A stretch of DNA of 64,000 bases from an uncultured Azospirillum sp. Lineage in GTDB: Bacteria > Pseudomonadota > Alphaproteobacteria > RF32 > CAG-239. Under the pieces are notes generated by a model, which was not told where the DNA came from, ran no database searches, and saw only the letters and a program-made list of their open reading frames with translations. This document shows, piece by piece, positions 35,598 through 54,765 of this stretch. Location of the stretch: assembly GCA_900538765.1 (NCBI GenBank), contig UQAB01000001.1, forward strand, positions 75,679-139,678, in the 5' to 3' direction. The position numbers and the translations under genes were made by a program. The number at the start of each line of letters is the position of its first letter. The stretch's first letter is position 1.

Positions 35598-35696
35598 ATA
35601 TCCCCTTGTAAACTGGAGATGCTAATCGGCTACAAACCTTACAGTTTGACCACACTCGTTGGCGCGGAACAGTGTCTAATGACACCTTTGCATTCA

Positions 35697-35718
35697 GCCC
35701 CCGATAAATCGGGGGTTT
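35697..35718 (+). terminator. terminator after the Cys-rich gene
   Basis: CCCCCGATAAATCGGGGG followed by TTTTC. Confidence 0.5.
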
Positions 35719-35740
35719 TCTGTAAGGAGTGTAATAAGCA

Positions 35741-35769
35741 AAAAGGCTCTGAATTTTCAGAGCCCTTTT
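35741..35769. terminator. bidirectional terminator hairpin
   Basis: AAAAGGCTCTGAattttCAGAGCCCTTTT. Confidence 0.5.
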
Positions 35770-35772
35770 ATT

Positions 35773-36294
35773 TTAGTGAACTGTAACGGTAACAAACGGC
35801 AAGTCAACATTATCGCTCTTCACATCAACCCATAAACGCTCTCCGACTGAATAAGCGCACACAGCTCTGCCGATTACTTCACCTTCCAATTCCGCCGGTT
35901 GTTCTTTAGCTAAATCGACAAGCTCCGCATCGACAACAAGATGATAATCGTCAACACAGAGCTTACCAAACACCCGACCATCAATAACTCTGGTAATTTT
36001 AAAAGGAAAAAAACCACTGCTCATACATTCCACAAAGTAACGTTTCAGCATCAAAATGCCAAACATCGCCGGCAAACTGGAAACAATGGCAACAATGACA
36101 CACATTTCTTTTGACAAAACTTCCGTTCCATTGCAAAACGCCGCCGCTAAAACATTCAACAGCATCACACAACCCAAAAACAGAATAATCTTCATTCTGC
36201 CTTTGTAAGGACGCACCGGTTTTTTCCACAAAATCACACACATACTGCCCCAGCAAATGACGCTGCACAGCACAAAAATAATAAAAGATACCAT
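35773..36294 (-). CDS. small membrane-anchored protein (2 TM plus beta-rich C-domain)
   Basis: MVSFIIFVLCSVICWGSMCVILW... C-terminus ...ITRVIDGRVFGKL...EGEVIGRAVCAYSVGERLWVDV. Lies 11 nt downstream of the 36306..36806 gene, so likely an operon. Confidence 0.5.
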   Translation of the reverse strand: MVSFIIFVLCSVICWGSMCVILWKKPVRPYKGRMKIILFLGCVMLLNVLAAAFCNGTEVLSKEMCVIVAIVSSLPAMFGILMLKRYFVECMSSGFFPFKITRVIDGRVFGKLCVDDYHLVVDAELVDLAKEQPAELEGEVIGRAVCAYSVGERLWVDVKSDNVDLPFVTVTVH

Positions 36295-36305
36295 ACAAAA
36301 AATAT

Positions 36306-36806
36306 TTAAGGATTAATAATAACTCTTGGCTTCACCACACAAACCGTCAATTCCGGTTTCAGCATTTCAACCCTGACCTTATTGATCACCGCACCGACTT
36401 TCATCCGTTTGAGAAAATCCGGCCCGGCAAAACAGACTGCTTCAAAAGGCATATCCCGGTTAACACCGATTAAATTACCTTTGACATAACTGTTGCCGAA
36501 TTCCTGAACCTCAAACGAAAATTCCCTGCCCAGAATCTGTTCGGCAAAAGTTTTATGAACATACTTAATCGCCTGATAATCCCAAAACAAAGCAGTCCCG
36601 GTCAAAGTTCCAAACACAGCAAAATGTTCGGTAATATCCGGCCACGCAAAAACAAGCGTTGCAATCAACAATCCGGCCAGTTCGCCGACAAAAACACACC
36701 AGCCCTGACGCATCCTCTTATTCCACAACGGTTTAAGAAAGAAAATCAACGGCCAAGTTACAAAATTAAAAAAGAGCATCACGCTCACAATCCAATAACT
36801 TCCCAT
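36306..36806 (-). CDS. small membrane-anchored protein (2 TM plus beta-rich C-domain), paralogous architecture
   Basis: MGSYWIVSVMLFFNFVTWPLIFFL... Family-type promoter/leader upstream. Confidence 0.5.
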   Translation of the reverse strand: MGSYWIVSVMLFFNFVTWPLIFFLKPLWNKRMRQGWCVFVGELAGLLIATLVFAWPDITEHFAVFGTLTGTALFWDYQAIKYVHKTFAEQILGREFSFEVQEFGNSYVKGNLIGVNRDMPFEAVCFAGPDFLKRMKVGAVINKVRVEMLKPELTVCVVKPRVIINP

Positions 36807-36880
36807 AATTGTAATATTTAAAATTTATAATAATAAAGAAACATACTAGATGTACCGCAAATGGACAAAAGAGTCAACGA
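36807..36880 (-). promoter_or_regulatory. family-type promoter plus AU-rich leader
   Basis: Reverse complement reads TTGACTCTTTTGTCCATTTGCGGTACATC...TTTATTATTATAAATTTTAAATATTACAATTATG. Confidence 0.4.
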
Positions 36881-36910
36881 CAAAAGAGACCGGATGTTCC
36901 GGTCTCTTTT
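36881..36910. terminator. bidirectional terminator hairpin
   Basis: AAAAGAGACCGGatgttCCGGTCTCTTTT. Confidence 0.5.
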
Positions 36911-36916
36911 ATAAAA

Positions 36917-37237
36917 TCAAATAACAACACCTAATTGATAGATTTCATCAAATCCCAGCACCTCGGCGTCAACTTCAAGATGTTCCGCACCTTGCCCTTT
37001 TGACAAGTCCAGAAAATAGCCATGGCATAGACAGTCGTCTTTATAAAAATCCGCATGCCAGCCGCGTTCCTTGGTATAATAAGTCAGTACGGCAACAACA
37101 CGCTTCGGCTTTTCTTCCGGTTCCGTTTGAATTTGCAGCGGTTTAACATACTTTTTATACACATAGTCGCCAACATAAACAAGTACCAGAAAAACAACCA
37201 GAGTCACGGCAATAATAATAATTTCTTCTGTTTTCAT
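36917..37237 (-). CDS. small membrane-anchored protein (1 TM plus C-domain)
   Basis: MKTEEIIIIAVTLVVFLVLVYVG... Family-type promoter/leader upstream (TTGACATTTTGTCTATAAGGGGTATGAT...ATTAATTTCTAAATATACATAATTATG). Confidence 0.45.
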   Translation of the reverse strand: MKTEEIIIIAVTLVVFLVLVYVGDYVYKKYVKPLQIQTEPEEKPKRVVAVLTYYTKERGWHADFYKDDCLCHGYFLDLSKGQGAEHLEVDAEVLGFDEIYQLGVVI

Positions 37238-37359: not shown

Positions 37360-39480
37360 TTATTTTTCGAGATCTTCACCGGTTTCCTGATTAACTCTCT
37401 TGGCAGAAAGTTTAATCTTACCGCGGTTATCCGTCCCCAGACATTTAACCCAAATCTCGTCGCCTTCCTTGTAAAAGTCAGAAACAGAAGCAATACGTTC
37501 GTTCTTAACCTCAGAAATATGAACCAATCCTTCCGTCTGTCCGAGGAAACGAACAAACGCACCAAAGTCCATAATCTTGGTAATCACGCCGTGATAAATC
37601 TTTCCTTCTTCCGGTTCGGCAACAATACCCATAATCCATTCCAAAGCGGCATCGCCGTCTTCCTTCTTCATGGATGCAATCTTGATAACGCCGTCATCGC
37701 TGATATCAATTTTGCAATGGGTCTTTTCGGTAATTTCACGAATAACCTTACCGCCGGAACCGATTACTTCGCGAATTTTATCAACCGGAATCTTAATCGC
37801 AACAATACGCGGCGCTTTGTCTGAAACATGTGGCCGCGGCTCGGCAATAACTTTCGCCATTTCGCCCAAAATATGAATACGGCCTTCATGAGCCTGAGCC
37901 AAAGCTGTCTGCATAATTTCTTTGGTAATGGAAGTAATCTTAATATCCATCTGCAAGGCGGTAACACCGTCTTTTGTTCCGGCAACCTTAAAATCCATAT
38001 CACCAAGATGGTCTTCATCACCGAGAATATCAGTCAAAACGGCAACCCGGCCATCATCTTCCTTAATCAACCCCATGGCAATACCGGCAACCGGCTTAGC
38101 CAAAGGAACACCGGCAGACATCAAAGACAATGTCGTTCCGCAAACGGTAGCCATCGAAGAAGAACCGTTTGATTCCAAAATCTCGGAAACAACACGAACC
38201 GTATAGGGAAAAGTATCCTTATTTTTCGGCATCATCGGATGAATAGCGCGCCATGCTAGCTTGCCGTGGCCGATTTCACGGCGTCCCGGAGCGCCGGTAC
38301 GACCGCACTCACCAACGGAAAACGGTGGAAAGTTATAATTCAGCATAAAGTCTTCTTTATATTCTTCCATCAGTCCGTCAATAATCTGCGCGTCTTCACC
38401 GGTACCCAAAGTTGTCGCAACCAGAGCCTGTGTTTCACCGCGCGTAAAGATAGCGGAACCGTGAGCCATTGGCAAAACGTCAACTTCACACCAAATCGGT
38501 CGAACAGTCTTTGTATCACGGCCGTCAATACGATGTCCCGTTGTCAAAACTTTTTCGCGAACAACCTTGTGCATTAATTTTTCCAACGCATCCTGCGCAT
38601 ATTTCTGCTCAAACTCATTTTCAGGATCAAGCGTCGCTTTAAATTCTTCGGAAGCTTTGCCAACCAGTTCACCGCGTTTCAGTTTGTCTGTTTCTTTGAA
38701 AGCTTCTTCAAACTTAGCTATAAAACCTTTCTCAAGTTTATTGTAAAGCTCGTCAAATTCCGGCGGAAACTTCGGCGCTTCCCACCGCGGTTTACCGGCT
38801 TCAGAAACCATTTCATTAATCATTTTGATAACCGGTTGGAAGCTCTCAAAACCAAACATAACCGCACCGAGCATTGTTTCTTCAGACAATTCCTGGGCTT
38901 CAGATTCTACCATCAGCACACCTTCTGATGTACCGGCAACAGCCAGTTCGAGTTCGGATTCTTTACGCTGATCCATTGTCGGATTCAAAATATACTGTCC
39001 GTCTTTATAACCAATCTTAGCCGCACCGATAGGCCCTAAGAACGGAATGCCGGAAACTGCCAGAGCAGCAGAAGCCGCAATCATGGCAACAACATCGGAA
39101 TCTGTCTGCTGGTCATGAGAAAGAACTGTACAAATAACTTGAACTTCATTTTTAAAAGCATCCGGGAACAGCGGACGAATTGGACGGTCAATCAGGCGAG
39201 AGATAAGAACTTCACGCTCGGAAGGCTTGCCTTCTCTTTTCATAAAACCGCCCGGCACTTTACCGGTAGCGTAATATTTTTCTTGATAATTAACTGTTAA
39301 AGGGAAGAAATCCTGATCGGGAGCAGCTTCCTTGGCTGCGCAAACTGTAGCTAAGACAGTGGTTCCTCCATAAGTTGCTTCCACGGCGCCGAGAGCCTGC
39401 TTAGCAATTTTACCTGTTTCTAAAACTAATTTTCTGCCGCCCCATTCCATTTCTTTGCGGCAAATATTCAATTCGACCAT
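37360..39480 (-). CDS. pnp: polynucleotide phosphorylase
   Basis: Two RNase PH domains plus KH and S1 domains. 706 aa. Sequence is diagnostic. Confidence 0.95.
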
Positions 39481-39649
39481 ATTTCTATACCTTTCATTTC
39501 ATCTTTTCAAACATCTTTATAAAACCTCACCCGAATTGGTCAAACCCGGGATTTTTAATATAAAGCACAATAATTACAATAATTGATATCGTGTAATAAA
39601 CTCCAAGTGCAAAAAAAACAGTATTCTCAAATTCTCCAGCACCTTCTTC

Positions 39650-40140
39650 AAAAAACTTGGAGTTTGAGGTCAATAGTAAGAAACTAGAGAAAATGTGAGG
39701 GAGTGTACATAGAAGTACATAACCGAACATTTTACTCGCAGTTTCTGTACTAGTGACCCAAAATACGAGTTTTTCAAAATTCACTTTTAGGAGAGCAGAT
39801 AGAGTAGTTTCCAGGTGCGAGAAAAATTCTAGTGTACAGAGAAGTACATGAATTTTTTGAGACACCCTCTCCTAAAAATGTTTTCAAAAAAACTTGGAGT
39901 TTGAGGTTAATAGTAAGAAAACAGAGAAAATGCGAGGGAGTGTACATAGAAGTACATGACCGAACATTTTACTCGCAGTTTCTGTACTAGTAACCCAAAA
40001 TACGAGTTTTTTAAAATTCACTTTTAGGAGAGCAGATAGAATAGTTTCCAGGTGCAAGAAAAATTCTAGTGTACAGAGAAGTACATGAATTTTTTGAGAC
40101 ACCGTAAAACTGCTCTAGATGCCTCATAAAAGTGAATTTT
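39650..40140. repeat. two tandem ~245-bp composite repeat units (family-A element plus a second hairpin element) filling the rpsO-pnp intergenic region
   Basis: Units at ~39652-39893 and ~39892-40140. Each has AAACTTGGAGTTTGAGGT(C/T)AATAGTAAGAAA...GGGAGTGTACATAGAAGTACAT(A/G)ACCGAA...CCCAAAATACGAGTTTTT. Then TTTTAGGAGAG...TAGTGTACAGAGAAGTACATGA...CTCTCCTAAAA. ORFs 39527..39865 and 39884..40102 are artefacts of the repeat. Confidence 0.7.
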
Positions 40141-40141
40141 T

Positions 40142-40414
40142 TTACTTACGGAGATCCAGCTTCTTAATAATTTCCTGATATCTGTCGTTGTTCTTGGCTT
40201 TCAAATAGTCAAGAAGATGGCGACGACGGCTGACCATTTTCATTAAGCCCAAACGGGAGTGCAAGTCTTTGTTATGAACATTGAAATGGCCGATAAGCTT
40301 ATTGATTCTGGCTGTCCAAATAGCAATCTGAACTTCCGGAGAACCTGTATCATTCGGATTCAAACCATAAGTATTTACAATTTCTTTTTTTTCTTCATTC
40401 GTAATAGACGACAT
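40142..40414 (-). CDS. rpsO: 30S ribosomal protein S15
   Basis: [31 protein letters not shown]... 90 aa. Confidence 0.9.
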
Positions 40415-40429
40415 CTGTATTTCCTTATT

Positions 40430-41341
40430 TTAGAGATTAAACACACGAACCGGAGCAATTTTCCGTTCTTCGATTCGCACAATCGCCGCCAGTTTACCGT
40501 TATATGTTGCCACAGCGTCTTCTCCAATGTGCTTAGAAACATCATAAGCGCGCGGAGACAGCCCCTGCCCCATTTTCAGTTTGGCGGCATCTGCTTCCGA
40601 AACAGCAATAACCGTGATGTCGCACAGAAATGTTTCTAACGGAAGCAAAAACTTATTAAGGTCTTCACCGTACACCATATTTTCTAAATTTTCCAGTAAA
40701 ATTTTCTGACTCAGATCAAAATTTCCGCATTTTGTCCGCCGCAGCTCCTGCAAATATCCTAAAGTTCCGAGTTTTAAAGCAATATCTTTGCCCAAAGTAC
40801 GGATATATGTCCCTTTGGAACAGCGGACTTTAAACCGCGCCTGCTGATTCGGCAACTCTTCAAGCAATTCCAGAGCATAGATTTCCACCTCGCGTTTGGG
40901 AATATCGACACAGATTCCCTTTCGTGCCAAATCATAAGCCCGCCGCCCGTTAATTTTAATCGCGGAATAAACCGGCGGCACCTGAACAATTTTCCCTAAA
41001 AAAGCCGGAATAACCGCTTCAATCTCCGAACGCTCGGGAATTTTCTCACATTGGGCAATCACCTCTCCCTCGGAATCATCCGTATCGGTAGAAACACCCC
41101 AACGAATAATAAATTCATACTCCTTGACGCCATCTGTCACAAAAGGCAAAAGCTTTGTCGCCTCGCCGAATGCAACCGGCAAAACCCCTGTTGCAAAAGG
41201 ATCCAGCGTCCCGGCATGGCCGTTTTTCCTGGCCCGGAACAAGCGTTTCGTCCGGCGCACCACATCTGTCGACCCCATTCCCCGGGATTTGTCAACCACC
41301 AGCCAACCGTTAATCTCTTCACCTTTGTTATGTTTCATCAA
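40430..41341 (-). CDS. truB: tRNA pseudouridine(55) synthase TruB
   Basis: GWLVVDKSRGMGSTDVVRRTKRLF...GHAGTLDPFATGVL is the catalytic Asp motif. PUA C-terminus. Confidence 0.9.
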   Translation of the reverse strand: MMKHNKGEEINGWLVVDKSRGMGSTDVVRRTKRLFRARKNGHAGTLDPFATGVLPVAFGEATKLLPFVTDGVKEYEFIIRWGVSTDTDDSEGEVIAQCEKIPERSEIEAVIPAFLGKIVQVPPVYSAIKINGRRAYDLARKGICVDIPKREVEIYALELLEELPNQQARFKVRCSKGTYIRTLGKDIALKLGTLGYLQELRRTKCGNFDLSQKILLENLENMVYGEDLNKFLLPLETFLCDITVIAVSEADAAKLKMGQGLSPRAYDVSKHIGEDAVATYNGKLAAIVRIEERKIAPVRVFNL

Positions 41342-41402
41342 CCTTCCCCGTTCATAATTTTACATCTTTTTAACCGATAAGCGCCCGTCTGTCAATGGAT
41401 AC

Positions 41403-41433
41403 AAAAAAACCTGAATCCGTTAAGGGATTCAGG
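41403..41433 (-). terminator. terminator of the 41440..42195 gene
   Basis: CCTGAATCCgttaagGGATTCAGG followed by T7, read on the minus strand. Confidence 0.5.
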
Positions 41434-41439
41434 CCATAA

Positions 41440-42195
41440 TTAATACAGCAACGACTTTGAATAATAAAAAACAAATCTTTCGCGCACAACAACCCAAAAG
41501 TCATAGCACAAATCCGCCACACTCCTGGGAGCGCAAAACCTGTCCGCCGCCAAACGGTTTCCAAAACAGCTGTTTCGTATTTTGAAAAAACGTTCCGAAC
41601 GCCGAACCAAACTGGGATAACGCAAATCCACCCGCATAAAAATACATTTATACATCAAATATCTGAGAACAAACACCTCCGTTTTGTTTTCGACCAGCAG
41701 CAAATCGCTTTTGATTGGAAACAGCAAAGAAGCGTCAAACATACCCTGTTCCCAAACATCATAGGCATTTTCTCCTGTCCTCTTGGCAATAATCTGTTTG
41801 GAATTTTTAGCATTGCAAAACACGCTTTCATAAATTACCTGACAAAAACACCCGCTCCCGTCAAAAAAAGACGTGATATTTGCACCATAAAAATAACAGC
41901 CAAAACTTTGCCCCAAACAAATAACTTTTCCTTGCTGCAGCGTATACCAAACATTCTCTTTCTCAAAGAATATCATTTCCCGATAAAAATAAGCATTGGC
42001 AACCTCATCTGCAACAAGCATCATCGCCGCCGCATTGACAATCAACAGCGTTTCGGCATCATCAGAAATCAATATCAACAACTCTCCCTGCCGCTCGGCA
42101 CGCCCGTTTTGACAATCAATGACAACATTGCCGTCTGATTTTTTTACAATTTGTAATCTCGCATTGCCGTTTTTAAAAACTTTTTTATTTCTCAT
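41440..42195 (-). CDS. hypothetical protein (~250 aa) with family-type AU-rich leader
   Basis: Start chosen at MRNKKVFKNGN... by analogy to the leader pattern TTTAATTATTATTGTTATATTTTTATG. The ORF-track start at 42234 lies inside the AT-rich leader. No domain recognised. Confidence 0.4.
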   Translation of the reverse strand: MRNKKVFKNGNARLQIVKKSDGNVVIDCQNGRAERQGELLILISDDAETLLIVNAAAMMLVADEVANAYFYREMIFFEKENVWYTLQQGKVICLGQSFGCYFYGANITSFFDGSGCFCQVIYESVFCNAKNSKQIIAKRTGENAYDVWEQGMFDASLLFPIKSDLLLVENKTEVFVLRYLMYKCIFMRVDLRYPSLVRRSERFFKIRNSCFGNRLAADRFCAPRSVADLCYDFWVVVRERFVFYYSKSLLY

Positions 42196-42300
42196 AAAAA
42201 TATAACAATAATAATTAAACATATAAATAAACAAACTTCGGCAACATAATCCCGCTTTAAATGAAAATCAACTTTTTTTTACATTTTTTTCTTTTTCTCC
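42196..42300 (-). promoter_or_regulatory. promoter plus AU-rich leader (family-like)
   Basis: TTGATT-17nt-TATGTT then an AT-rich leader. Confidence 0.35.
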
Positions 42301-42333
42301 TAACCGCTGCTTTCATGCAACGTCTTTTGCAAT

Positions 42334-42354
42334 AAAAAAACCGCCCGAAGGCGG
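42334..42354 (-). terminator. rbfA terminator
   Basis: CCGCCttcgGGCGG followed by T7, read on the minus strand. Confidence 0.5.
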
Positions 42355-42361
42355 CAGTCTA

Positions 42362-42745
42362 TTAATCCTTATTATCTAAATCCTGTCTGACTTTGGGATT
42401 TCTCAGCAATTTCTCAATCTTGTCAACTTCTTCAAATGTTTTATCAATACGGAAATTTAGCTCCGGTACATATCTCAAATCGGTTTTGGAAATAATCACC
42501 TTGCGCAAATAATTGGCAGCCAACTGTAAACCGCCGATAACTTCCTGCTCCTTGCTTTTGTCAGAAGTAATGACATAAACTGTTGCATATTTCAAATCAG
42601 GAGAAACGCGCGCTTCCATAATCGTCACCAGCGTATTAACCCCTTGCAAATTACGAATTTCATCCCGTTCAACCTGATTGGCAATAATCTTCTTAATTTC
42701 CTGTCCAACTCTCAGCTGACGTTGCGACGGCTCTTTCTCTGCCAT
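42362..42745 (-). CDS. rbfA: ribosome-binding factor A
   Basis: RQLRVGQEIKKIIANQVER... KH-like fold. 127 aa. Confidence 0.85.
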   Translation of the reverse strand: MAEKEPSQRQLRVGQEIKKIIANQVERDEIRNLQGVNTLVTIMEARVSPDLKYATVYVITSDKSKEQEVIGGLQLAANYLRKVIISKTDLRYVPELNFRIDKTFEEVDKIEKLLRNPKVRQDLDNKD

Positions 42746-42851
42746 AAAACTTCTCCTTAATCACGTTAACACGGCTATATATAAAGCTAAAAACAATGAT
42801 AATCAAGAAAAAACAAAAGGACAGGATAAAATCCCGCCCTTTTTAACCAAC

Positions 42852-43481
42852 TCAGAACAAGCCCGGCGCACTGTAAACTTCCAAACTTCCGTTTTTCCAC
42901 GCCAATCTTGCCTTTTGACATCTTTTCCCGGCAAAGACAGTGTCTTGAACAAATTCGGTTTTTATTTTCCCCGAACACAGACCTGTTTCCTCCCAGGAAT
43001 AAGCAACACCCCTTCCGGCTCGCACGCCTCTTCCCGGAACACAATGCAAACCATAAGTATTATCATGCGGTTCCAGGTAAGTCAGAACAATTCCGTCTTT
43101 CTGTTGCAAAGCAAAAACCCAGAAATCAGGACAGTCAATAATTCTGCTACCCAAACTTTTTACTTCTCCGGGCTTCTGTTCGTCAGGTTCAATGGTAAAA
43201 AACGTTTTTCCTTCTGAAAACAAAGGCTTTTGCCCCACAAAACCATAAAAACAAAATATGCCCTCAGACGGCCGATAAGAAGAAAGTTCATTTTTATCGC
43301 TGCTGAGCCAAAACAAACCGCCTTCTTCAAAATACAACAGATTTCCCCGCGTTTCAAAACGCTTGTCCGTTGAAATGACAACATCATACAATCCGCTTGC
43401 GGAGTTAAACTTTCTTAGCCACACTTTTTTACCATACCGGCACAAATCATAAGTTTTAATTTCTCTGACATCCATAATCAT
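42852..43481 (-). CDS. family protein (WxSS-motif, DUF1566/Lcl-C-terminal-like?)
   Basis: GGLFWLSSDKNELSSY and a later YSWEETG. The AU-rich leader TTTATTATTAAATTTTTATGATTATG is retained 25 nt after the upstream paralog. Confidence 0.4.
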   Translation of the reverse strand: MIMDVREIKTYDLCRYGKKVWLRKFNSASGLYDVVISTDKRFETRGNLLYFEEGGLFWLSSDKNELSSYRPSEGIFCFYGFVGQKPLFSEGKTFFTIEPDEQKPGEVKSLGSRIIDCPDFWVFALQQKDGIVLTYLEPHDNTYGLHCVPGRGVRAGRGVAYSWEETGLCSGKIKTEFVQDTVFAGKRCQKARLAWKNGSLEVYSAPGLF

Positions 43482-43506
43482 AAAAATTTAATAATAAAGA
43501 AGTATT

Positions 43507-44031
43507 TCAAAAGTTCGTTAATATCGGACGGATAAAGGCTTCATCCGCGGAAAAGGCATCATCTTCTTTAGCCAAATTCCAATAATATAAAAACGCCCCC
43601 AATCCCTTTCGGGAAGTCCAATAGTATCTAAGAACTTTCAGCGGCTGCCCGCCGATTTCCCTCATTGCGGCATTAATACCCCCAAAATGCGCATTAATGC
43701 ACTTCCAAATATCCTTGTCTGCCAAAATATCGTTTCGACCACAAAACGAATGCTGATTACAATATCCTTTAACACAATTCCGATTAACTTTGCATTCAGA
43801 ATCCGCCAATGCAATTATATAACAGCAAAAGGCGATTCCGACTGGTGTTCGGCCGGACATATCTTCTTTGTAAGGACTAATCAAACCATCAGAATAAACA
43901 ACACGGAAAGCATATTTTTCTTTTCTTCGGACATAACGCCAAAAACGGGAAAAAATCCCATGTTGATAAAAAACTGTAAAAACATTGTCATCATCACGAC
44001 ATAAACAAGGAGAGTCTTTTTCTGTTTTCAT
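43507..44031 (-). CDS. family protein (WxSS-motif, DUF1566/Lcl-C-terminal-like?)
   Basis: ...RYYWTSRKGLGAFLYYWNLAKEDDAFSADEAFIRPIL. Cassette upstream: TTGACTTTTGTCTAGCC...ATTATTAACTTAATAAAAAAATATAATTATG. Confidence 0.45.
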   Translation of the reverse strand: MKTEKDSPCLCRDDDNVFTVFYQHGIFSRFWRYVRRKEKYAFRVVYSDGLISPYKEDMSGRTPVGIAFCCYIIALADSECKVNRNCVKGYCNQHSFCGRNDILADKDIWKCINAHFGGINAAMREIGGQPLKVLRYYWTSRKGLGAFLYYWNLAKEDDAFSADEAFIRPILTNF

Positions 44032-44110
44032 AATTATATTTTTTTATTAAGTTAATAATATTTTTTCAACCCAAACCCTACCACAGGCTAGACAAAAGTC
44101 AACAAAAAAA
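44032..44110 (-). promoter_or_regulatory. family-type promoter plus AU-rich leader
   Basis: Conserved TTTTTTTGTTGACTTTTGTCTA. Confidence 0.45.
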
Positions 44111-44140
44111 GCTCCGAGTTTTAGCTCGGAGCTTTTGTTA

Positions 44141-44269
44141 TTAATCAGAAACTTCCGTCTTTTTCTTTTTTGCTTCTTCCTCAGCACAAAACTGCACCAA
44201 ATCATCAACTAAAAATCCAGCTGTTTCTAAACTGTCTTTAATACTTTGCAAAAATTCCTCTCTTTTCAT
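44141..44269 (-). pseudogene. 42-codon truncated paralog of the 51085..51696 gene (N-terminal domain only)
   Basis: Manual translation gives MKREEFLQSIKDSLETAGFLVDDLVQFCAEEEAKKKKTEVSD*. The paralog begins MEKEKFLQSIKETLEAAGFLVDDLVQYCAEKE... The upstream cassette is retained but the -35 reads TTGGCT instead of TTGACT. Too short for the ORF track. Confidence 0.5.
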
Positions 44270-44345
44270 AATTATATATTTTAAAAATTAATAATACTTT
44301 TTCTCTCTCATTACTGCAATCTAAACAAAAGCCAACAAGAAAGGT
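44270..44345 (-). promoter_or_regulatory. degenerate family-type promoter plus leader
   Basis: CTTGTTGGCTTTTGTTTAGA...AGTATTATTAATTTTTAAAATATATAATTATG. Confidence 0.4.
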
Positions 44346-44375
44346 TTCAAATTAAAATTCGAAACCTTTAAAATT

Positions 44376-44819
44376 TCATGAAAGACTGTTCATGCGCCGC
44401 ACCGGTCGGATAAAATTCGTTTCCCGGTTCAGGTGGCCGTTTTCGGCAGAATCCGGATAAACAAAAACCAACTCGTCAGGATTGTTCATCCATACTGTAT
44501 CCGTCCACACCGCACCGCGTCCGATACGGTCACCGCCAAGACTGACAATAAATTGGCAAAGCTCCTCAAACACCGGATGAATTGAAAGCCAAAACTCTTT
44601 AATTCCCAAATGACAGGGCTTGCCGTCAATCTTAACCGTCTTTACAATCTCCTTAGCTTCCGCAGGGGTATGCCACTTGCGGTCTTCTTTCAAAGAAATG
44701 GCATAACCGTTATAAATCACGGCTTCAACCTTTTTGTCCGGCAGCAAATCATGAGAAATTTCACCGCCAAGATACAAAATTGCAAACTTCTCGTTCTTTT
44801 GAAATTCTTTCTTTTCCAT
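44376..44819 (-). CDS. family protein (DUF1566/Lcl-C-terminal-like?)
   Basis: ...VKIDGKPCHLGIKEFW...SLGGDRIGRGAVWTDTVWMNNPDELVFVYPDSAENGHLNRETNFIRPVRRM aligns with the C-terminus of the 51085..51696 protein. Cassette upstream with TTGACT-16-TATAGT. Confidence 0.45.
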   Translation of the reverse strand: MEKKEFQKNEKFAILYLGGEISHDLLPDKKVEAVIYNGYAISLKEDRKWHTPAEAKEIVKTVKIDGKPCHLGIKEFWLSIHPVFEELCQFIVSLGGDRIGRGAVWTDTVWMNNPDELVFVYPDSAENGHLNRETNFIRPVRRMNSLS

Positions 44820-44900
44820 AATAATTGTGTATTTAGTAGTTATAAAAATATTTTAACATCGCTACTATACTACATTTTAGACAAAAGTCAACAAAATATA
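44820..44900 (-). promoter_or_regulatory. family-type promoter plus AU-rich leader
   Basis: TTTGTTGACTTTTGTCTAAAATGTAGTATAGT...AAATACACAATTATTATG. Confidence 0.45.
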
Positions 44901-44958
44901 AAATAAAAAAAGCGGCGTGCTTTTAACACCCCGCTCAAAACCATTTTGATAAATCAAA

Positions 44959-45444
44959 TTAGTTGTTTTCAAACGCTTTCGCCTGTTTTTTGGCATCATC
45001 GTCTGTTCTGGCAACGTTAACCAAAATTGTCTGGGTAACTTCCGGATGAAGATTCAATTTAACTTCATACACGCCCAAATCTTTAATCGGTCTTTCCAGA
45101 AAAACGCAGCGGCGTTCAATATCAAAACCGGACTCTTTAATTGCAGCGGCAATATCGCGAATGGTAACAGAACCATACAACTGACCTGTTTCGGCAGCCT
45201 GACGGATAAGAATTGCGCTGTAACCTTTCAGAGCTTCAGCCTTCTTACCGGCTTCTTCAAGCAAAGCCTTGTTGTGAGCTTCTAACTCTGCTTTTTTGTT
45301 TTCGTAAAAAGCAACATTGGCTTCAGTAGCGCGAAGAGCCTTTTTGCTCGGCAAAAGATAGTTGCGGGCATAACCGTTCTTGACATTAACTTTGTCACCC
45401 ATTTTACCTAATTTATCAACATGTTCCAGAAGAATAATTTCCAT
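44959..45444 (-). CDS. rplI: 50S ribosomal protein L9
   Basis: MEIILLEHVDKLGKMGDKVNVKNGYARNYL. 161 aa. Confidence 0.9.
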   Translation of the reverse strand: MEIILLEHVDKLGKMGDKVNVKNGYARNYLLPSKKALRATEANVAFYENKKAELEAHNKALLEEAGKKAEALKGYSAILIRQAAETGQLYGSVTIRDIAAAIKESGFDIERRCVFLERPIKDLGVYEVKLNLHPEVTQTILVNVARTDDDAKKQAKAFENN

Positions 45445-45459
45445 AGTTTCTCTCCTTCC

Positions 45460-45687
45460 TTAATCAGCCACGAACGGCAGCAAGCCGATGTAGCGGGCAC
45501 GTTTAATAGCGCGGGCCAGTTCTCTCTGCTTTTTAACAGAAACAGCTGTGATGCGGCTCGGAATGATTTTTCCTTTTTCAGAAATGTATCTTGAAAGGAG
45601 TTTAACGTCTTTGTAGTCAATTTTCAAAGCGTCTTCGCCGGAAAACGGACAAGCTTTTTTTCTTCTAAAGAATACTTGTTTAGCCAT
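45460..45687 (-). CDS. rpsR: 30S ribosomal protein S18
   Basis: [26 protein letters not shown]. 75 aa. Confidence 0.9.
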
Positions 45688-45698
45688 TATACAATCTC

Positions 45699-46028
45699 CT
45701 ATTCTTCGCTGGCGTCTTTTTCGCTTGATGAAACTTCGCTGAATTCATCAACTTTAACTGTCATGTAACGAATGATGTCTTCGTTAAAGCGCATAACGCG
45801 TTCAAATTCCGCAATAGCGTTAGCCGGAGCGGTAATGTTCATCAGAACATAATGGCCTTTACGGTTTTTCTTAATGCGATAAGCCAGGTTTTTCAAACCC
45901 CAGTTATCAACTCTGACGACTTCGCCACCTTCTTTCTTAACGACATTGCTCAAATCTTCAACAATGCTGTTAACCTGAGAAGCGCCCAAGTCCTGACGTG
46001 CAATCAGCACGCTTTCATAATTAGTCAT
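45699..46028 (-). CDS. rpsF: 30S ribosomal protein S6
   Basis: [14 protein letters not shown]...[10 protein letters not shown]. Confidence 0.9.
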
Positions 46029-46281
46029 TTATAAATTCTCCTTATGGATTCTCAACAAATGCCGCCTGCAATCGATATAAGGAATCGAAACAGCCGGCGT
46101 GTTCTTTTGTATAGCCCGAACATTTCGAGCAAGGAACGGCTGCAATATACACCAAACTCGTTAATTTGCAAGCATTTTTTCATTTTACGGCAAATTTAGC
46201 CAAAATCAGCCGCCATATTTATATTATATTAAGGTTTTGCCTTTATATTTAAACAAAATAAACTTAACACCTGGGGCGCAA

Positions 46282-46623
46282 ATGCTGAATTTTAAACCAA
46301 TATTGATATTCTGTCTGGTTCTGGCGGTCGGTTCCTGCGGCTGGTTTCACCACAGCGGCAAAACCATACACCACATCCCGGCACCGGCAGGATATGCCAA
46401 CGAAATACAAAAAATAAGCCTGCTTGACCCCTATACCCGCAATATTGTCCATTGTTACGATTCATCTTCCGGCGGCTCGGAAAACTGCGCCAGAAAATAC
46501 AAACGAAAAAACTTTGTCCGTTTCCGCGACATCCCGTATAAAACGGCAAACTACGATTTTCTGACCAGAGAAACTTATCCGACCCGCCGCTGGAGAGAAC
46601 ACGAACGCACGCCCCGGTGGTAA
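46282..46623 (+). CDS. small putative lipoprotein
   Basis: MLNFKPILIFCLVLAVGSCG is lipobox-like. The ORF-track start at 46237 is TTG. Weak SD. Confidence 0.35.
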   Translation: MLNFKPILIFCLVLAVGSCGWFHHSGKTIHHIPAPAGYANEIQKISLLDPYTRNIVHCYDSSSGGSENCARKYKRKNFVRFRDIPYKTANYDFLTRETYPTRRWREHERTPRW

Positions 46624-46629
46624 TCTGCA

Positions 46630-48153
46630 ATGCTGGCCAGAATCAATACTGTTACCTTTAACGGCTTAGAAGTTTTAAACGTCGACCTGCAGGTTCAGAT
46701 TTCATCTGGAATGCCTGCATTTTCCATCGTCGGCCTCCCGGATAAATCCATTGCCGAAAGCCGCGAGCGTGTCCGCGCCGCATTGAACTCTCTTGGGCTG
46801 TCTGTCCCTGCCAAACGCATCACCATCAACCTTGCACCGGCAGATTTACTGAAAGAAGGCGCTCACTTTGACCTTCCCGTCGCCTTAGGCCTGCTTGCCG
46901 GCATGGGAATTATCCCGCAGGAAGAAATCAGCCGTTATGTCGTCCTCGGCGAGCTCAGCCTTGACGGCGCCATTCTCCCTGTCAACGGTGCACTTCCCGT
47001 TGCAATCAAAGCCAACGCGCAAAACCTCGGCCTTATCTGCCCGGAGGCTCAAGGCGCTGAAGCAGCTTGGTCCGGGCTGAAAGACATCATCGCCGCATCT
47101 TCTCTGCTGGCATTGATAAACCACTTCAAAGGCGCGCAAATCATTCCTGCCCCAAAAACCTTGAAAAAAGCGCCAGCCGCCAAACATTTGGACATGAAAG
47201 ACGTCAAAGGGCAGGAAAGCGCCAAAAAAGCTCTTGAAATCGCTGCAGCCGGCGGACACAATATGTTAATGATTGGTCCGCCGGGAGCCGGAAAAAGCAT
47301 GCTCGCATCACGCCTGCCGGGAATTCTCCCGCCGTTGACGCCCGAAGAAGCCCTTGCCACCAGTATGATTCATTCCATAGCCGGTGCCCTGAAAGACGGA
47401 CAACTCTGTTTTGAGCGACCGTTCCGCGCCCCGCACCATAATGCCTCAACCCCGGCCTTGGTCGGCGGCGGCAGACGCGCTGAACCGGGAGAAATTTCCC
47501 TCGCCCATAACGGCGTATTATTCTTGGACGAGCTTCCCGAATTCAACCGTGCAACCCTGGAAGCGCTGCGCCAACCGCTCGAAAACGGCAGCATCACCAT
47601 TTCCCGGGTAAACGCTCATACAACCTATCCGGCAAAGTTCCAGCTCATCGCGGCAATGAACCCCTGCCGCTGTGGCAATCTAGGAAATCCGAGGTTTGAA
47701 TGCTCCCGAGCACCGAAATGTGCCGAAGAATATCAGGCAAAAATTTCCGGACCGCTCCTCGACCGTATAGATATACAAATTGAAGTTCCCGCCGTCAGTC
47801 CTTGGGAAATAGCCGACGTCAAAACCGGCGAAAGCTCAGCCGAAATCTTGCAAAGAGTTATCCATGCCCGCAACATCCAAACCGAAAGATTCCGACGTTT
47901 CGGCCATCCCGAACTGCACACCAATTCCGAACTCAGAGGCGACCTCCTGGAACAGGCCGTACAGCTGGATAATGACGCGGAACAGCTTCTCATCGCCTTT
48001 GCCGACAAAAACAACCTTTCAGCCCGCGCTTATCATCGTATTTTGCGGTTAGCAAGAACAATTGCAGACTTGCAAAATAACGAAAAAGTGCTTAAACTGC
48101 ACGTAGCTGAGGCTTTGTCCTATCGCAGGGCATTACCAAACCGGAGAAAATAA
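46630..48153 (+). CDS. YifB/ComM-family Mg-chelatase-like AAA+ ATPase
   Basis: Lon-like N-domain, Walker A GPPGAGKSMLA, and a ChlI-type core with the Cys cluster CRCGNLGNPRFECSRAPKC. Confidence 0.85.
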   Translation: MLARINTVTFNGLEVLNVDLQVQISSGMPAFSIVGLPDKSIAESRERVRAALNSLGLSVPAKRITINLAPADLLKEGAHFDLPVALGLLAGMGIIPQEEISRYVVLGELSLDGAILPVNGALPVAIKANAQNLGLICPEAQGAEAAWSGLKDIIAASSLLALINHFKGAQIIPAPKTLKKAPAAKHLDMKDVKGQESAKKALEIAAAGGHNMLMIGPPGAGKSMLASRLPGILPPLTPEEALATSMIHSIAGALKDGQLCFERPFRAPHHNASTPALVGGGRRAEPGEISLAHNGVLFLDELPEFNRATLEALRQPLENGSITISRVNAHTTYPAKFQLIAAMNPCRCGNLGNPRFECSRAPKCAEEYQAKISGPLLDRIDIQIEVPAVSPWEIADVKTGESSAEILQRVIHARNIQTERFRRFGHPELHTNSELRGDLLEQAVQLDNDAEQLLIAFADKNNLSARAYHRILRLARTIADLQNNEKVLKLHVAEALSYRRALPNRRK

Positions 48154-48165
48154 TGGAGAAAATAC

Positions 48166-51006
48166 ATGAAAATCACTAGGTGTTTCAAACTTTTAGCCTG
48201 TTCTGCCATGGCTCTGTCCATATGCAGCATAGCATTCTCCGAAACAATGGCCTCACAATACAGCAATAGTTTCCAACAAGATACGGAATCCGGAAGCCGC
48301 AGTGTTCGCGTCGAATATACGGGACTAAGCCGTTCCATGGGCTTCTTTGACGAAGCACAGCCCCAACCGGAAGAAATCCAGGGAAGCGCCAATGTCAACA
48401 CCAGACTCAAACAACGTCTTCCCCAACCCAAAGTAAACGTCAAAAGTACTTACAGCGGCGAAACTTACCGTGACGGCAGTATCTTTGGCGGCACCTGCTG
48501 CACCGCCTCTAACAAACAGGATAACAGCATTTTCCCCGGACATGGCTGCTCTAAAGACGAAATGCGCGGCTGTGTTACAGTCAAACCGGCGCCAAAAAAA
48601 GTTCCCTGCAAGCCTAAAAAACGCAAAATCATTGCCAAAGAAGCTGTTCCGATGCGCGAAAACTTCGTTAATAACTACGTCACCGTCGGCCGCCGCGACG
48701 TTTATCGCAGCATCCACAATCAATGCCAGAAATTTGCCCCCATTCAGCTGGAATGGGTTGATTTCAGACTGAATGAAGAAGACATCAACGGCACAATGTC
48801 ACAAAAACTCGGCAACTACCGTTTCCGCATTTTCGGCTGCCGCCGTTTTAGCAAAGAAGCTTTCCTTGATCAGAGTCGTCTGATGCAGCAAAACATGCGC
48901 TTCATGTCCATTTTCGAAAATGAACTCAAAGACTGCTTCAAAATCGTAAAAATTCCTAACGATGTCTGTACGGAAGTAACGCCCAGCCCGCTGCCCGAAT
49001 ATTTGGTAACCGCGGAAATCACCAATTATTTTATGAACATCTGCGATAAATACGACTGGGACAACAGCGTTAAGGAAGACAAACGCACCGGCTCGTCTGA
49101 AATTACGATTAAATGGACAATCACCGACATCAATAAAACCAAAGCTTACTGGAGCGGTGAAACAAACGGTTACGGCGAATTAATGCGCGGCGAGGAAAAC
49201 GGCGAAATAATCCTGGTGGAAAGAGCCTATGCCGACGCTGTCAATAATTTGCGCAACAATCCCGGCTTCCAAAAACAACTTTCCCGCCGCTTCAGTCCGG
49301 CTGAAAGAGAAAACCAGCGCATTGAACTGATTGAGCGCGAAAGAGAGCTTAACCCGGCAAAATGCCAATACACCAAACATGAAACAGAAATCAACGAAAC
49401 AACAAAATACGTTTACACGCCTGACAAACCGGCTGAAAAAGTTGATGTTCCGGAACCCGTATCACCGCTGGTTAAAAATAAAGAAGTACTGCCGGTTCCA
49501 ACAGTCGTTGCCAAACTCTCCGACGGTTCGGTTGTCGAAAAACAGTCTGACGGCGTTGTTATCCGCAAAAACAAAGACGGCAGCAGCATAAAAGTGGCTC
49601 CGGCTCCCAAACCGGCTCCGGAAATCAAAACGACCGTTACGACAACGGTAGAAAAGGAAATTCCGATACCGACACCCCCGGTTCCGCTGCCAGAACCTGC
49701 ACCATTACCGGCAGCACCGTTACCTACCCCGGCACCGGCCGTAACCACCACCACAACAACCGTTGTTACAACGGTAACAGAAGAGCCAGCACAGGTTTTT
49801 GACGCCGCAACATTACTTGAAAAAGAGCGCCCGTCAGAACCTCTGGACATCAGCCTTATTCCGACAAATCAGGAAGAACGTTACGGTCAAAATTCTGAAT
49901 TTGAAGATGCGGAAATCAAGGTTGACCTGAAAACCACAACGTTGGATAAGCCTTCCGGCGTCATCCCTCTGCCTGTACCGCCGCTGCCGGTTCCGGAAAA
50001 GCCCTGCAACAACATGACATTGTTTGGCCCGGATTGCGACTGCAATAATAAACTGTACCGCGGTTGTGAGGACAACAAGCTGTATAAAGGCTGTGAGGAC
50101 AACAAACTTTACGGCGGCTGTGAAGCTCAAACGCTGTTTGGCGATTGCACCAAAGATCCCCAGGGCTGCAAAGTCACAAACAACATCGATTTGGATATTG
50201 ATGAAAAAGGCGGTGTTGAAGCGACCGGTACAGTCAGCAAAGAAACCTGGATCAGCGTTCCGATTAATGATCAGGGAGCTATTGACGCTCAGAATAACCT
50301 CTGCATCATTGAGCGCCCGGCTTACGATACGCCGCTGACGCCGGAAGATGTCTATAAGATACGCGCGTCAATCATCTCAATTACCAACAACCAGGGAAAG
50401 AAAGGCGCCGGTCTTATCGTTTCCGACCAGTTTGTTTTGACCTCGGCCGACCTGATAACCAAAGAAAACAATTCTTATGAATTGCAGACAATCAACGGCG
50501 TCAAATTCAAAGGCCATGCGGTTCGCCTTAACCCGAACAAGAATGTTGCCCTGATATTCATGGAAAAGAAGACGACATACACACCGCTCTCTCTGAACCT
50601 TGAACTGCCGCCGATTAATAAGGACAAATTCCTGACGCTGGGTATCCTTGATTTCAGTACCGGCGAAGGTTACCTTGAAGATTCCGGAAAAGTCAGCGGT
50701 TACCGTTATTCTGAAAACCGCGGCACAGAAATCATCATTGATACTTTCGTTCAGGATGTCACGTTGGGCGGCGCTTTGATTGATAAGCAGGGAACAATTA
50801 CCGGCTTGGCTCATACCGGTGCCAAACCGAGTGAAAATACAGACTTGTTCCTACCGATTGCCACGGCAATGAAGAGTGTCGGTCTTGAAATCTGCGGCAA
50901 ACAGATAAAAGACATTCCGGTCAAGAATACTGAAATCAGCGACGCTATTCTCTTCAACAGCGGGTCAAAAGAACCTCTGCCGATGAACAAGAGCGAACGC
51001 AAATAA
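48166..51006 (+). CDS. large secreted protein with Pro/Thr-rich linker, Cys repeats and C-terminal degenerate trypsin-like domain
   Basis: Signal peptide MKITRCFKLLACSAMALSICSIAFS. PT-rich region ...PIPTPPVPLPEPAPLPAAPLPTPAPAVTTTTTT... Triple (R/K/G)GCEDNKLY repeat. C-terminal GAGLIVSDQFVLTSADLI ... GTEIIIDTFVQDVTLGGALIDKQGTITGL resembles the S1/HtrA fold with His and Ser positions substituted. Confidence 0.55.
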   Translation: MKITRCFKLLACSAMALSICSIAFSETMASQYSNSFQQDTESGSRSVRVEYTGLSRSMGFFDEAQPQPEEIQGSANVNTRLKQRLPQPKVNVKSTYSGETYRDGSIFGGTCCTASNKQDNSIFPGHGCSKDEMRGCVTVKPAPKKVPCKPKKRKIIAKEAVPMRENFVNNYVTVGRRDVYRSIHNQCQKFAPIQLEWVDFRLNEEDINGTMSQKLGNYRFRIFGCRRFSKEAFLDQSRLMQQNMRFMSIFENELKDCFKIVKIPNDVCTEVTPSPLPEYLVTAEITNYFMNICDKYDWDNSVKEDKRTGSSEITIKWTITDINKTKAYWSGETNGYGELMRGEENGEIILVERAYADAVNNLRNNPGFQKQLSRRFSPAERENQRIELIERERELNPAKCQYTKHETEINETTKYVYTPDKPAEKVDVPEPVSPLVKNKEVLPVPTVVAKLSDGSVVEKQSDGVVIRKNKDGSSIKVAPAPKPAPEIKTTVTTTVEKEIPIPTPPVPLPEPAPLPAAPLPTPAPAVTTTTTTVVTTVTEEPAQVFDAATLLEKERPSEPLDISLIPTNQEERYGQNSEFEDAEIKVDLKTTTLDKPSGVIPLPVPPLPVPEKPCNNMTLFGPDCDCNNKLYRGCEDNKLYKGCEDNKLYGGCEAQTLFGDCTKDPQGCKVTNNIDLDIDEKGGVEATGTVSKETWISVPINDQGAIDAQNNLCIIERPAYDTPLTPEDVYKIRASIISITNNQGKKGAGLIVSDQFVLTSADLITKENNSYELQTINGVKFKGHAVRLNPNKNVALIFMEKKTTYTPLSLNLELPPINKDKFLTLGILDFSTGEGYLEDSGKVSGYRYSENRGTEIIIDTFVQDVTLGGALIDKQGTITGLAHTGAKPSENTDLFLPIATAMKSVGLEICGKQIKDIPVKNTEISDAILFNSGSKEPLPMNKSERK

Positions 51007-51008
51007 CC

Positions 51009-51036
51009 CAAAAAAGCGCCCGTTTGGGCGCTTTTT
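51009..51036. terminator. bidirectional terminator
   Basis: AAAAAAGCGCCCgtttGGGCGCTTTTTT. Confidence 0.55.
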
Positions 51037-51050
51037 TGATAAACAAAATA

Positions 51051-51080
51051 AAAGCTCCAAAATAAAACTTGGAGCTTTTA
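51051..51080 (-). terminator. terminator of the 51085..51696 gene
   Basis: AAAAGCTCCAAaataaaacTTGGAGCTTTT. Confidence 0.5.
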
Positions 51081-51084
51081 TAAT

Positions 51085-51696
51085 TTAAGATAATTCAGAC
51101 AAATCCAGCACCGGATGAACAACGTAGTTGCCGTACTTATTGCGGTAGTCCACGCCGCCCCAATCAGCGCCAATAAGCGTACAGAAGACCCACGCGTGGT
51201 AGCCGTCATACTCGGACGACGACCAATACCATTTCCCCTGCACCACTATTGTATCACCGCCAAGGCTAATCAACAAATTATCAAGCGCTTTTTTCTGTTC
51301 CTCACAGCTACTCATCACTTTTTTCCAGAATCCAATTTTTCCGGCGCTGCAAGCATGACCTTCTATTTTAATTTCACGACAATACTTCACAACTTCTCTC
51401 CACGGCACCGTCCTTGAAGAATCATGTAAGGTGATAAGATGATTCTCAAAAATAACGCCCAATGGCTTTTTGCCTTCAAGCGGAACCCATGACCGAACCA
51501 TACCCTCATACATAACTTCAAAAGGAAATCTTTCCTCGTTCTCTTTTGAAGAAACACCAACGACAGAAACGTCACTTGCTACAGCATTAATAGCCGGTAC
51601 CTCCTTTTCAGCACAATATTGCACCAAATCGTCAACTAAAAACCCTGCCGCCTCCAATGTCTCTTTAATACTTTGTAAAAATTTTTCTTTTTCCAT
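51085..51696 (-). CDS. family protein: N-terminal domain plus DUF1566/Lcl-C-terminal-like domain
   Basis: ...GKWYWSSSEYDGYHAWVFCTLIGADWGGVDYRNKYGNYVVHPV matches the hallmark YWSST...AW.v.f..G......yvRcV ending of DUF1566/FISUMP-type domains. No signal peptide. Confidence 0.5.
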   Translation of the reverse strand: MEKEKFLQSIKETLEAAGFLVDDLVQYCAEKEVPAINAVASDVSVVGVSSKENEERFPFEVMYEGMVRSWVPLEGKKPLGVIFENHLITLHDSSRTVPWREVVKYCREIKIEGHACSAGKIGFWKKVMSSCEEQKKALDNLLISLGGDTIVVQGKWYWSSSEYDGYHAWVFCTLIGADWGGVDYRNKYGNYVVHPVLDLSELS

Positions 51697-51775
51697 AATT
51701 ATATATTTTAATTAATAATAAATTTCATATTCCTACTCTATCACGCATTAGACAAAAGTCAACAAAAAAACATCT
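51697..51775 (-). promoter_or_regulatory. family-type promoter plus AU-rich leader (reference copy)
   Basis: Reverse complement reads TTTTTTTGTTGACTTTTGTCTAATGCGTGATAGAGTAGGAATATGAAATTTATTATTAATTAAAATATATAATTATG. Confidence 0.5.
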
Positions 51776-51819
51776 AAACCATTCATCTGCTTATACCGCT
51801 GCTAATCCGCCTTAATCCT

Positions 51820-54757: not shown

Positions 54758-54765
54758 CTAACCGG

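Follow-up and report, generated by a model that had tools for sequence, protein, structure and literature searches.

In a stretch of 64,000 nucleotides from an uncultured Azospirillum sp. of the Alphaproteobacteria (contig UQAB01000001.1 of assembly GCA_900538765.1, positions 75,679 to 139,678; hereafter the window), a family of small proteins without signal peptides is encoded on the minus strand among genes for translation, and we report here on the fold of these proteins and on their probable descent from targets of a diversity-generating retroelement (DGR). Gene A (51085..51696, minus strand) encodes 203 amino acids without a signal peptide, with a two-helix module at the N-terminus (residues 2-31), a disordered linker (residues 32-53), and a beta-hairpin with an Lcl_C-like, C-type-lectin-like domain (residues 55-203). 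Residues 158-196 of gene A (51109..51225, minus strand; WSSSEYDGYHAWVFCTLIGADWGGVDYRNKYGNYVVHPV) have the scaffold of a DGR variable region (VR), which is probably fixed. Gene C (44376..44819, minus strand; 147 amino acids) is a paralog without the helical module at its N-terminus, and gene B, also a paralog (43507..44031, minus strand; 174 amino acids) has an alternative N-terminus, DSPCLCRDD. Both end in a decayed motif (VWTDT...FIRPV in C, YYWTSRKG...FIRPIL in B), and the DNA of neither C-terminus resembles a DGR template repeat (TR). Between C and B lies a 42-codon open reading frame (ORF; 44144..44269, minus strand) that consists of the N-terminal helical module only and is 75% identical to residues 1-28 of A. 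This ORF equals the N-terminal module of a P0008/P0010-like gene of the family and is apparently what remains of a truncated gene. A human-gut metagenome scaffold from ENA (L005) is identical to the window from infB to pnp and carries the same ORF calls, the 42-codon ORF included, with no Pfam domain assigned. In addition, a protein identical to that of gene A is called on an ENA gut-metagenome contig, and the nearest GTDB genomes are metagenome-assembled genomes (MAGs) of uncultured Alphaproteobacteria/Pseudomonadota from the human gut.

The initial annotation had proposed that four ORFs of the window form one paralogous family with a common C-terminal motif, and this holds for three of them (A, B and C). 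By BLASTP, A matched C with E=7e-10 and B with E=2e-6. When a profile made solely from A-type homologs outside the window was searched against all 1137 six-frame ORFs of the window, it recovered C (E=1.2e-13), B (E=3.7e-8) and the 42-codon ORF (E=3.8e-14), with no further match under E=0.4. Judged from these sequence comparisons, A, B, C and the 42-codon N-terminal remnant are true paralogs. The fourth ORF, D (42852..43481, minus strand; 209 amino acids), was considered as a remote member and rejected (no hidden Markov model (HMM) match at E<=10, hhalign probability 0.3%), as was ORF E (41440..42234, minus strand; called as 251 amino acids from the ATG at 42194), an orphan between rbfA and truB that lies inside the span first claimed for the family (no HMM match at E<=10, hhalign probability 0.5%). 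The motifs had also been paired with the wrong coordinates: GKWYWSSSE...VVHPV belongs to 51085-51696 and GLFWLSSDKNE to 42852-43481, and in D the latter sits at residues 55-65 and not at the C-terminus, a coincidental resemblance. A few homologs were found for ORF D, which stands apart as a lineage-specific orphan and probably shares a transcript with B. The absence of signal peptides was confirmed, since the stop-to-stop frames reach just 4-11 codons upstream of the ATGs; the N-termini are hydrophilic, with a maximum Kyte-Doolittle hydropathy over 12 residues of 1.27 for A and 0.81 for B. In the precomputed annotation, no family member has a Pfam domain or a functional name. Searches of PHROGs gave a weak match alone, to a family of unknown function, PADLOC gave none for the family, and no relatives were found among IMG/VR viral contigs. 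A fusion partner was considered as a hint of function and set aside, as the protein concerned (P0041, 542 amino acids) lacks a Pfam domain and probably is an artefact of read-through.

The family genes had also been thought to have a promoter each, which is true in part. Promoter-like sites were called for A (51735..51762, minus strand; TTGACT, 16 nt, TAGAGT, with TG before the -10 hexamer) and for C (44864-44891; TTGACT-16-TATAGT), but B and D lie 25 bp apart with no terminator between them. Terminators were called after A (a hairpin-like site directly behind the gene, 51048..51081, minus strand), after the 42-codon ORF (44107-44136, strong and abutting the gene B promoter) and after D. These promoter-like sites and terminators suggest largely independent transcription units, with B and D probably sharing one. 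The 42-codon module is cut off by the terminator that abuts the B promoter, which suggests turnover by cassette recombination. An exact 15-mer that includes a -35 element, GTTGACTTTTGTCTA, is found upstream of A, B and C and is part of the promoter-like site of gene A. This shared promoter module was weighed as a hallmark of mobile cassettes and rejected, because similar -35 sequences also stand before ORF 12225-12737, which by eye we take to be a housekeeping CarD-type regulator, so that the module is not specific to the family.

The comparison of the C-termini with DUF1566 proved sound at the level of the superfamily. Against Pfam PF07603 itself, A scored 12.4 bits (E=0.19), which is under the gathering threshold of 34.9, and B and C gave no match; Lcl_C was matched weakly by 10 of 26 family members (best E=0.0053). 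None of the five ORFs matched TIGR02145 at E<=10. When 1.8 billion representative proteins were searched with a profile, 493 relatives were returned. Among the proteins that the family profile reached are multidomain ones (E=1e-10 to 1e-27), which are assigned to Lcl_C by Pfam with E-values of 1e-10 to 1e-24. Aligning the small family with Lcl_C domains by hhalign gave a probability of 97.9% (E=3e-13, 72 columns), and the sole match in a sequence-profile search of the PDB was 8q4e, the C-terminal domain of Lcl from Legionella pneumophila. The lectin-like fold was borne out by an AlphaFold2 model made from the family alignment, with a predicted local distance difference test (pLDDT) score of 84 and values >90 for most of residues 55-203. 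The profile-profile match, the transitive searches and the structural model thus support the family as a divergent branch of the DUF1566/Lcl_C C-type-lectin-like superfamily. Among its small relatives (130-210 amino acids), an N-terminus like a signal peptide is almost never found; the long relatives have one.

Variation within the A subfamily is concentrated near the C-terminus. Residues 61-90 are nearly invariant, with an entropy of 0.3-0.4 bits, versus 2.1-2.5 bits for the hypervariable residues 161-190, and the VR segment is the most variable segment of the protein among paralogs as well. The dN/dS ratio is 0.94 in the VR and 0.29 in the core, and the third position of VR codons is less variable than the first two. 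In a codon alignment of alleles, the variable codons are mostly NNC/NNT and are interleaved with codons that are identical in DNA, synonymous sites included. These scaffold codons (TGG TCG TCG TCC GAG; GCG TGG GTC TTC TGT ACG; GGC GGC GTG) are identical in DNA even among paralogs with 55-60% protein identity. A lectin fold with a hypervariable C-terminal segment on a fixed scaffold is the hallmark of DGR targets. Domains of the DUF1566/Fib_succ_major type are a recognised class of DGR targets, about half of which are short single-domain proteins (PMC5758913).

The genes also differ between strains as whole units. In strains with a 99.9% identical infB protein (L001), the gene in A's slot is just 55% identical, while the protease gene downstream of the slot (48166-51006) is 97.6% identical, and the divergence at the slot runs from the end of infB to the convergent terminator. 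Related genomes have family members at other junctions of housekeeping operons, namely between ftsK and grpE, between rplL and rpoB, and downstream of rph; further sites are found downstream of dnaA-dnaN-recF and at an MFS-transporter/SDR (major facilitator superfamily/short-chain dehydrogenase-reductase) junction a few kb before rimP-nusA. In one member of the gene A cluster, P0213, the body of A continues into the VR and tail of a different paralog (cluster c3), either by gene conversion among paralogs or as an artefact of a chimeric assembly.

A DGR was at first not accepted, on the grounds that six neighbourhoods held no reverse transcriptase, the window no TR, and the alleles were stable and differed by indels; this view was overturned by a scan of metagenomes with the scaffold pattern TGGTCGTCGTCCGAG-N15-21-GCGTGG, which returned 97 loci. 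On environmental contigs, classic VR/TR pairs lie about 690 bp apart and differ only at template adenines, which shows that the scaffold is that of a canonical DUF1566-type VR. On five human-gut contigs (L034, L074, L083, L084 and L120), 3-8 tandem TR units are spaced 265-297 bp apart; these units have exactly the scaffold of the family, their variable codons are AAC/AAT, and all of them end in CCGGTGCTAGCTTTTTT. The array on L083 (154-4110) comprises eight units between bAvd (Pfam, 2.4e-19) and an RVT_1 reverse transcriptase (4.9e-17), and its TRs fall into four length classes (117, 126-129, 135 and 150 nt). The reverse transcriptase has an IGNLTSQ motif, typical of the reverse transcriptases of DGRs. 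Together, the five loci hold 17 distinct TR units of 117-150 nt, and TR content varies between strains.

Among the collected loci are ten VRs with 6-19 adenine-site changes relative to a TR and 0-1 mismatches at other bases. The proteins with these clean VRs all end in VRPVLAF and comprise a secreted Cys-rich class (270-370 amino acids), a leaderless class (about 190 amino acids) and a class of 128 amino acids; the secreted relatives within the same species have ordinary signal peptides. In two target genes, the VR differs in length and derives from a different TR depending on the sample (L084, minus-strand 4460, with L057 6687 and L042 6359; L105, minus-strand 2322, with L056 912), which suggests that one and the same target can exchange its template.

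The relation of gene A to these templates was examined with TRs from other strains. Over its 39 scaffold codons, the VR of gene A gave local DNA alignment scores of 63-118 with the TRs, compared to a mean of about 15 (standard deviation 2) after shuffling. Relative to the best TR of the same length, mismatches fall on 17 of 33 adenines versus 10 of 84 other bases (p=1.5e-5), and relative to TR1 minus three codons on 15 of 33 versus 5 of 84 (p=2e-6). The strong alignment and the adenine bias, together with the inexact match, indicate that the segment derives from a VR and is not a clean copy of a sampled template. At its 3′ end, gene A reads GTTGTTCATCCGGTG followed by CTGGATTTGTC, and the TRs read GTCGTTCGCCCGGTG followed by CTAGCTTTTTT. 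The 3′ flank of A-type VRs, CTGGATTTGTC, which encodes the LDLSELS tail, departs from the TR flank immediately after CCGGTG, so that the match to the TR flank at the 3′ end of the gene A VR (the region for initiation of mutagenic homing, IMH) is probably too poor for retrohoming. All ten clean VRs keep the TR-matching, LAF-type flank, CTAGCTTT. Every A-type VR has 4-15 non-adenine mismatches. Across four samples, the VR of gene A differs at 1-2 of 117 nt, and outside the VR 26 of 495 nt differ in one of them (L104); the members of the gene A cluster share one VR, and one allele is present on 163 contigs. In other target classes of the species, the VR is replaced between samples. The non-adenine changes, the 3-codon length difference, the divergent 3′ flank and the invariance of the VR across strains make it most likely that gene A is a fixed, or retired, former DGR target that is not currently used, and it appears to be inactive as a target now. 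The tails of B and C have no similarity to any TR at the DNA level, with alignment scores at background; these two genes keep the fold alone and have lost the DNA scaffold of the VR. Relatives from other strains that share the N-terminus of B (L111 and L093) still have a VR.

We consider it probable that the family is a leaderless lectin-fold family with a VR scaffold derived from a DGR, and that the copies in the window are former targets, now frozen or decayed. The family would then consist of lineage-specific, small, leaderless proteins with a C-type-lectin-like body that binds a ligand, many of them with a two-helix module and a flexible linker in front of it, and the pattern W-S-S-S-E ... 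A-W-x-F-C-T ... G-G-V ... N-K ... V-R-P-V would be the invariant scaffold of the variable region. A DGR encoded elsewhere in the species, with bAvd, 6-8 tandem TRs and a reverse transcriptase, would overwrite the last ~40 codons of its target genes with adenine-mutagenised cDNA of a template, and this overwriting would re-randomise the loops of the lectin-fold binding surface. The window copies would descend from such targets, A with a recognisable VR and B and C with the fold only, and would have been placed at junctions between housekeeping operons, largely as transcription units of their own. By homology, the family proteins may bind ligands, with the former VR as the binding loops.

The DGR probably resides in the same genome as the window genes. 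Contig L103 is 98-99% identical to positions 50367-64000 of the window and shares its assembly with the TR contig L084, at similar coverage. A reverse transcriptase in the same 90% cluster as that of L083 (MDO5386650.1) comes from the same MAG series as contigs L001 and L002, whose infB is 99.9% identical to the window infB, and the GC content of the contigs with bAvd, TRs and reverse transcriptase matches that of the window.

Several observations weigh against descent from DGR targets. The window has no reverse transcriptase, Avd or TR (a blastn-short search for TRs included), and the connection of the DGR to the window consists of MAG binning, co-occurrence at similar coverage and the shared DNA scaffold, with no contig that joins them. 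The VR of gene A has no exact match to any sampled TR, from which it differs by 5-10 non-adenine mismatches and in length, so that ordinary divergence contributes. Some codons that contain adenine (AAG, ACG, GAG) are conserved within VRs. The frozen state of the gene A VR could also be due to strong selection, or to the clonal sampling of a single widespread strain.

A broader version of this interpretation, which we put forward tentatively, is that the species has one unusually large DGR, with one bAvd-reverse transcriptase pair, 6-8 templates of differing loop length, template switching and at least four target architectures, both secreted and leaderless. Its leaderless cassettes would be located where core operons for translation, replication and transcription meet, and the window copies would be archived specificities, no longer editable and still expressed from their own promoters.

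Other explanations were weighed against this origin. The proteins might be effectors directed at a host or at competitors and exported by a non-Sec route (type IV secretion system, type I secretion system or other), with the N-terminal helices or the LDLSELS tail as the signal, an idea that is compatible with a DGR origin. They are leaderless and yet homologous to extracellular adhesin modules, their N-terminal module and acidic C-terminal tail are conserved, and their genes lie scattered as single-gene units, a common arrangement for effectors. However, neither the window nor the neighbour lists showed a secretion-system gene or a known signal, DGR targets in the cytoplasm have been described (PMC10907252), and the clearly secreted relatives of the same species have the ordinary signal peptides described above, which makes an effector role unlikely.

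That gene A and the other paralogs with an LDLSELS tail are still active targets, diversified remotely from a cognate TR that was not sampled and only rarely or under certain conditions, appears less likely still. The adenine bias of the gene A VR is in line with it, and so are the TR sets of the multi-TR DGR of the species, which differ between strains (17 distinct units over the five loci). Among A-type alleles, L029 comes near a TR, with 17 adenine-site versus 4 non-adenine mismatches; cluster c7 shows K/I/R variation at an AAA codon of the TR, and one of its members has a replaced 5′ half of the VR; and remote and trans-acting targets are documented (PMC5758913, PMC10907252). On the other hand, four independent samples and the cluster members have essentially one and the same VR in a gene that otherwise varies; 4-15 non-adenine mismatches are present in each A-type VR, with a flank that departs after CCGGTG, unlike the ten clean VRs; and none of 22 TR-like units has a flank of the LDLS type.

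Least probable is that these are ordinary lectin-like paralogs shaped by point mutation, cassette recombination and positive selection with no retroelement, their similarity to TRs being due to common DUF1566 ancestry: the alleles do differ by indels and throughout the gene, third codon positions vary in the VR too, whole cassettes are exchanged between strains with breakpoints at the ends of the flanking genes (L001), the truncated remnant at 44144-44269 and the promoter and 5′ modules that the copies have in common suggest recombination between them, and one cluster member combines the body of A with the VR of another paralog, but the TR arrays beside bAvd and reverse transcriptase have exactly the scaffold of the family with Asn codons at the variable positions, A and other A-type VRs are significantly enriched in adenine-site changes, the scaffold codons are conserved at synonymous sites among diverged paralogs, and recombination and a DGR origin are mutually compatible.

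Descent from DGR targets places the family in a known kind, the DUF1566-type targets, in an unusual form. The DGR class with DUF1566/DUF823/Fib_succ_major targets (CLec2, a C-type-lectin subclass, VRs; 'category d' of Wu et al. 2018; LdtA of Legionella) likewise has its VR in the last ~40 codons of a C-type-lectin-like domain, with a YWSSSE...AW...N-rich template, adenine-specific differences from the TR and remote targets. LdtA and typical members of the class are lipoproteins or secreted proteins, whereas the window family is leaderless with a two-helix N-terminal module; unlike typical targets, the window copies are not clean VR/TR matches and appear fixed, and the associated DGR has 6-8 tandem TRs where one is usual. 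The best match in both sequence profile and fold is the C-terminal domain of L. pneumophila Lcl (PDB 8q4e; PF07603), whose lectin-like fold, without disulfides or a Ca2+/carbohydrate motif (PMC11162425), is also that of the window family. Lcl and the window family have a common layout of N-terminal helix, linker and C-terminal domain; Lcl has a signal peptide, is exported by a type II secretion system, has collagen repeats, forms trimers and binds glycosaminoglycans, whereas the window proteins have neither leader nor collagen repeats. TvpA of Treponema denticola and Mtd of Bordetella phage, two DGR variable proteins of solved structure, belong to a different C-type-lectin (CLec) subclass (formylglycine-generating enzyme (FGE)-sulfatase/Mtd type), are surface or phage-tail proteins and have no sequence similarity to the family. 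The cytoplasmic, trans-diversified targets of Thiohalocapsa PB-PSB1 and cyanobacteria are also leaderless CLec proteins, many per genome and far from reverse transcriptase and TR (PMC10907252); they are large multidomain sensors associated with STAND/MoxR, whereas members of the window family have 130-210 amino acids and no signalling domain. A literature search found no description of this family or of an eight-unit TR array. What is less usual here is the size of the tandem TR library, the apparent template switching, the leaderless architecture with a helical N-terminus and the dispersal of fixed or decayed former targets over junctions of housekeeping operons.

The neighbourhood of the family is, as first described, one of ribosomal and translation genes, with infB, rpsF-rpsR-rplI, rbfA, truB, rpsO and pnp around the family genes. 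Along the minus strand, infB (52256-54757) is followed by a 152-bp tandem repeat and gene A. Past gene A come three plus-strand genes, for a small lipoprotein-like ORF, a comM-like gene and a 946-residue protein with a signal peptide and a trypsin-like domain. Then follow rpsF-rpsR-rplI, gene C, the 42-codon ORF, gene B, ORF D and rbfA, and after these ORF E, truB, rpsO, a second repeat and pnp. The usually contiguous operon nusA-infB-rbfA-truB-rpsO-pnp is thus split in the window (37360-57004) by rpsF-rpsR-rplI, comM, the protease gene and orphan cassettes, and in related genomes orphan genes likewise lie between rplL and rpoB and after dnaA-dnaN-recF. The protease gene (48166-51006) encodes a signal peptide, a Pro/Thr-rich linker, 27-bp tandem repeats at the DNA level (50050-50123) and a C-terminal trypsin-like domain; it is convergent with gene A, and this synteny is conserved. 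The intergenic tandem repeats (51819-52249, 152 bp x 2.8 copies; 39650-40103, 237 bp x 1.9 copies) are part of a dispersed family with related copies at 14477-14588 and 29492-29616, whose copy number varies by strain; one array lies immediately upstream of gene A. Between 36 and 53 kb of the window, a search for Rfam families gave no match.

Two other regions of the window stand out. Between rimP and a gene of the lptF/G family, a 2-kb insertion of low GC content (57672-59707; 0.29-0.35) carries a 611-residue ORF (57817-59652) with no match in Pfam, PHROG or PADLOC; the insertion is absent from three close strains (L001, L103 and L104). Downstream of pnp, the region 33040-37237 holds a Cys-rich ORF of 634 residues (33693-35597) with a hydrophobic N-terminal stretch, together with small membrane-protein ORFs (33040-33525, 35773-36294, 36306-36806 and 36917-37237), the last of which has a promoter/leader module resembling that of the family genes. 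The Cys-rich protein recalls the N-terminal regions of secreted DGR targets on other contigs and has no VR.

The analysis makes an unannotated family of hypothetical proteins interpretable as lectin-fold proteins whose binding loops were probably written by a retroelement. It points to a tandem-template DGR with many dispersed targets in a common uncultured alphaproteobacterium of the gut; single alleles of the family genes are present on 160-240 public contigs. DGR-detection pipelines that need a nearby reverse transcriptase or clean, adenine-only mismatches would miss the family genes. If the frozen copies are indeed former targets, the locus records DGR specificities that were fixed and then kept as ordinary genes, a step that is rarely visible.

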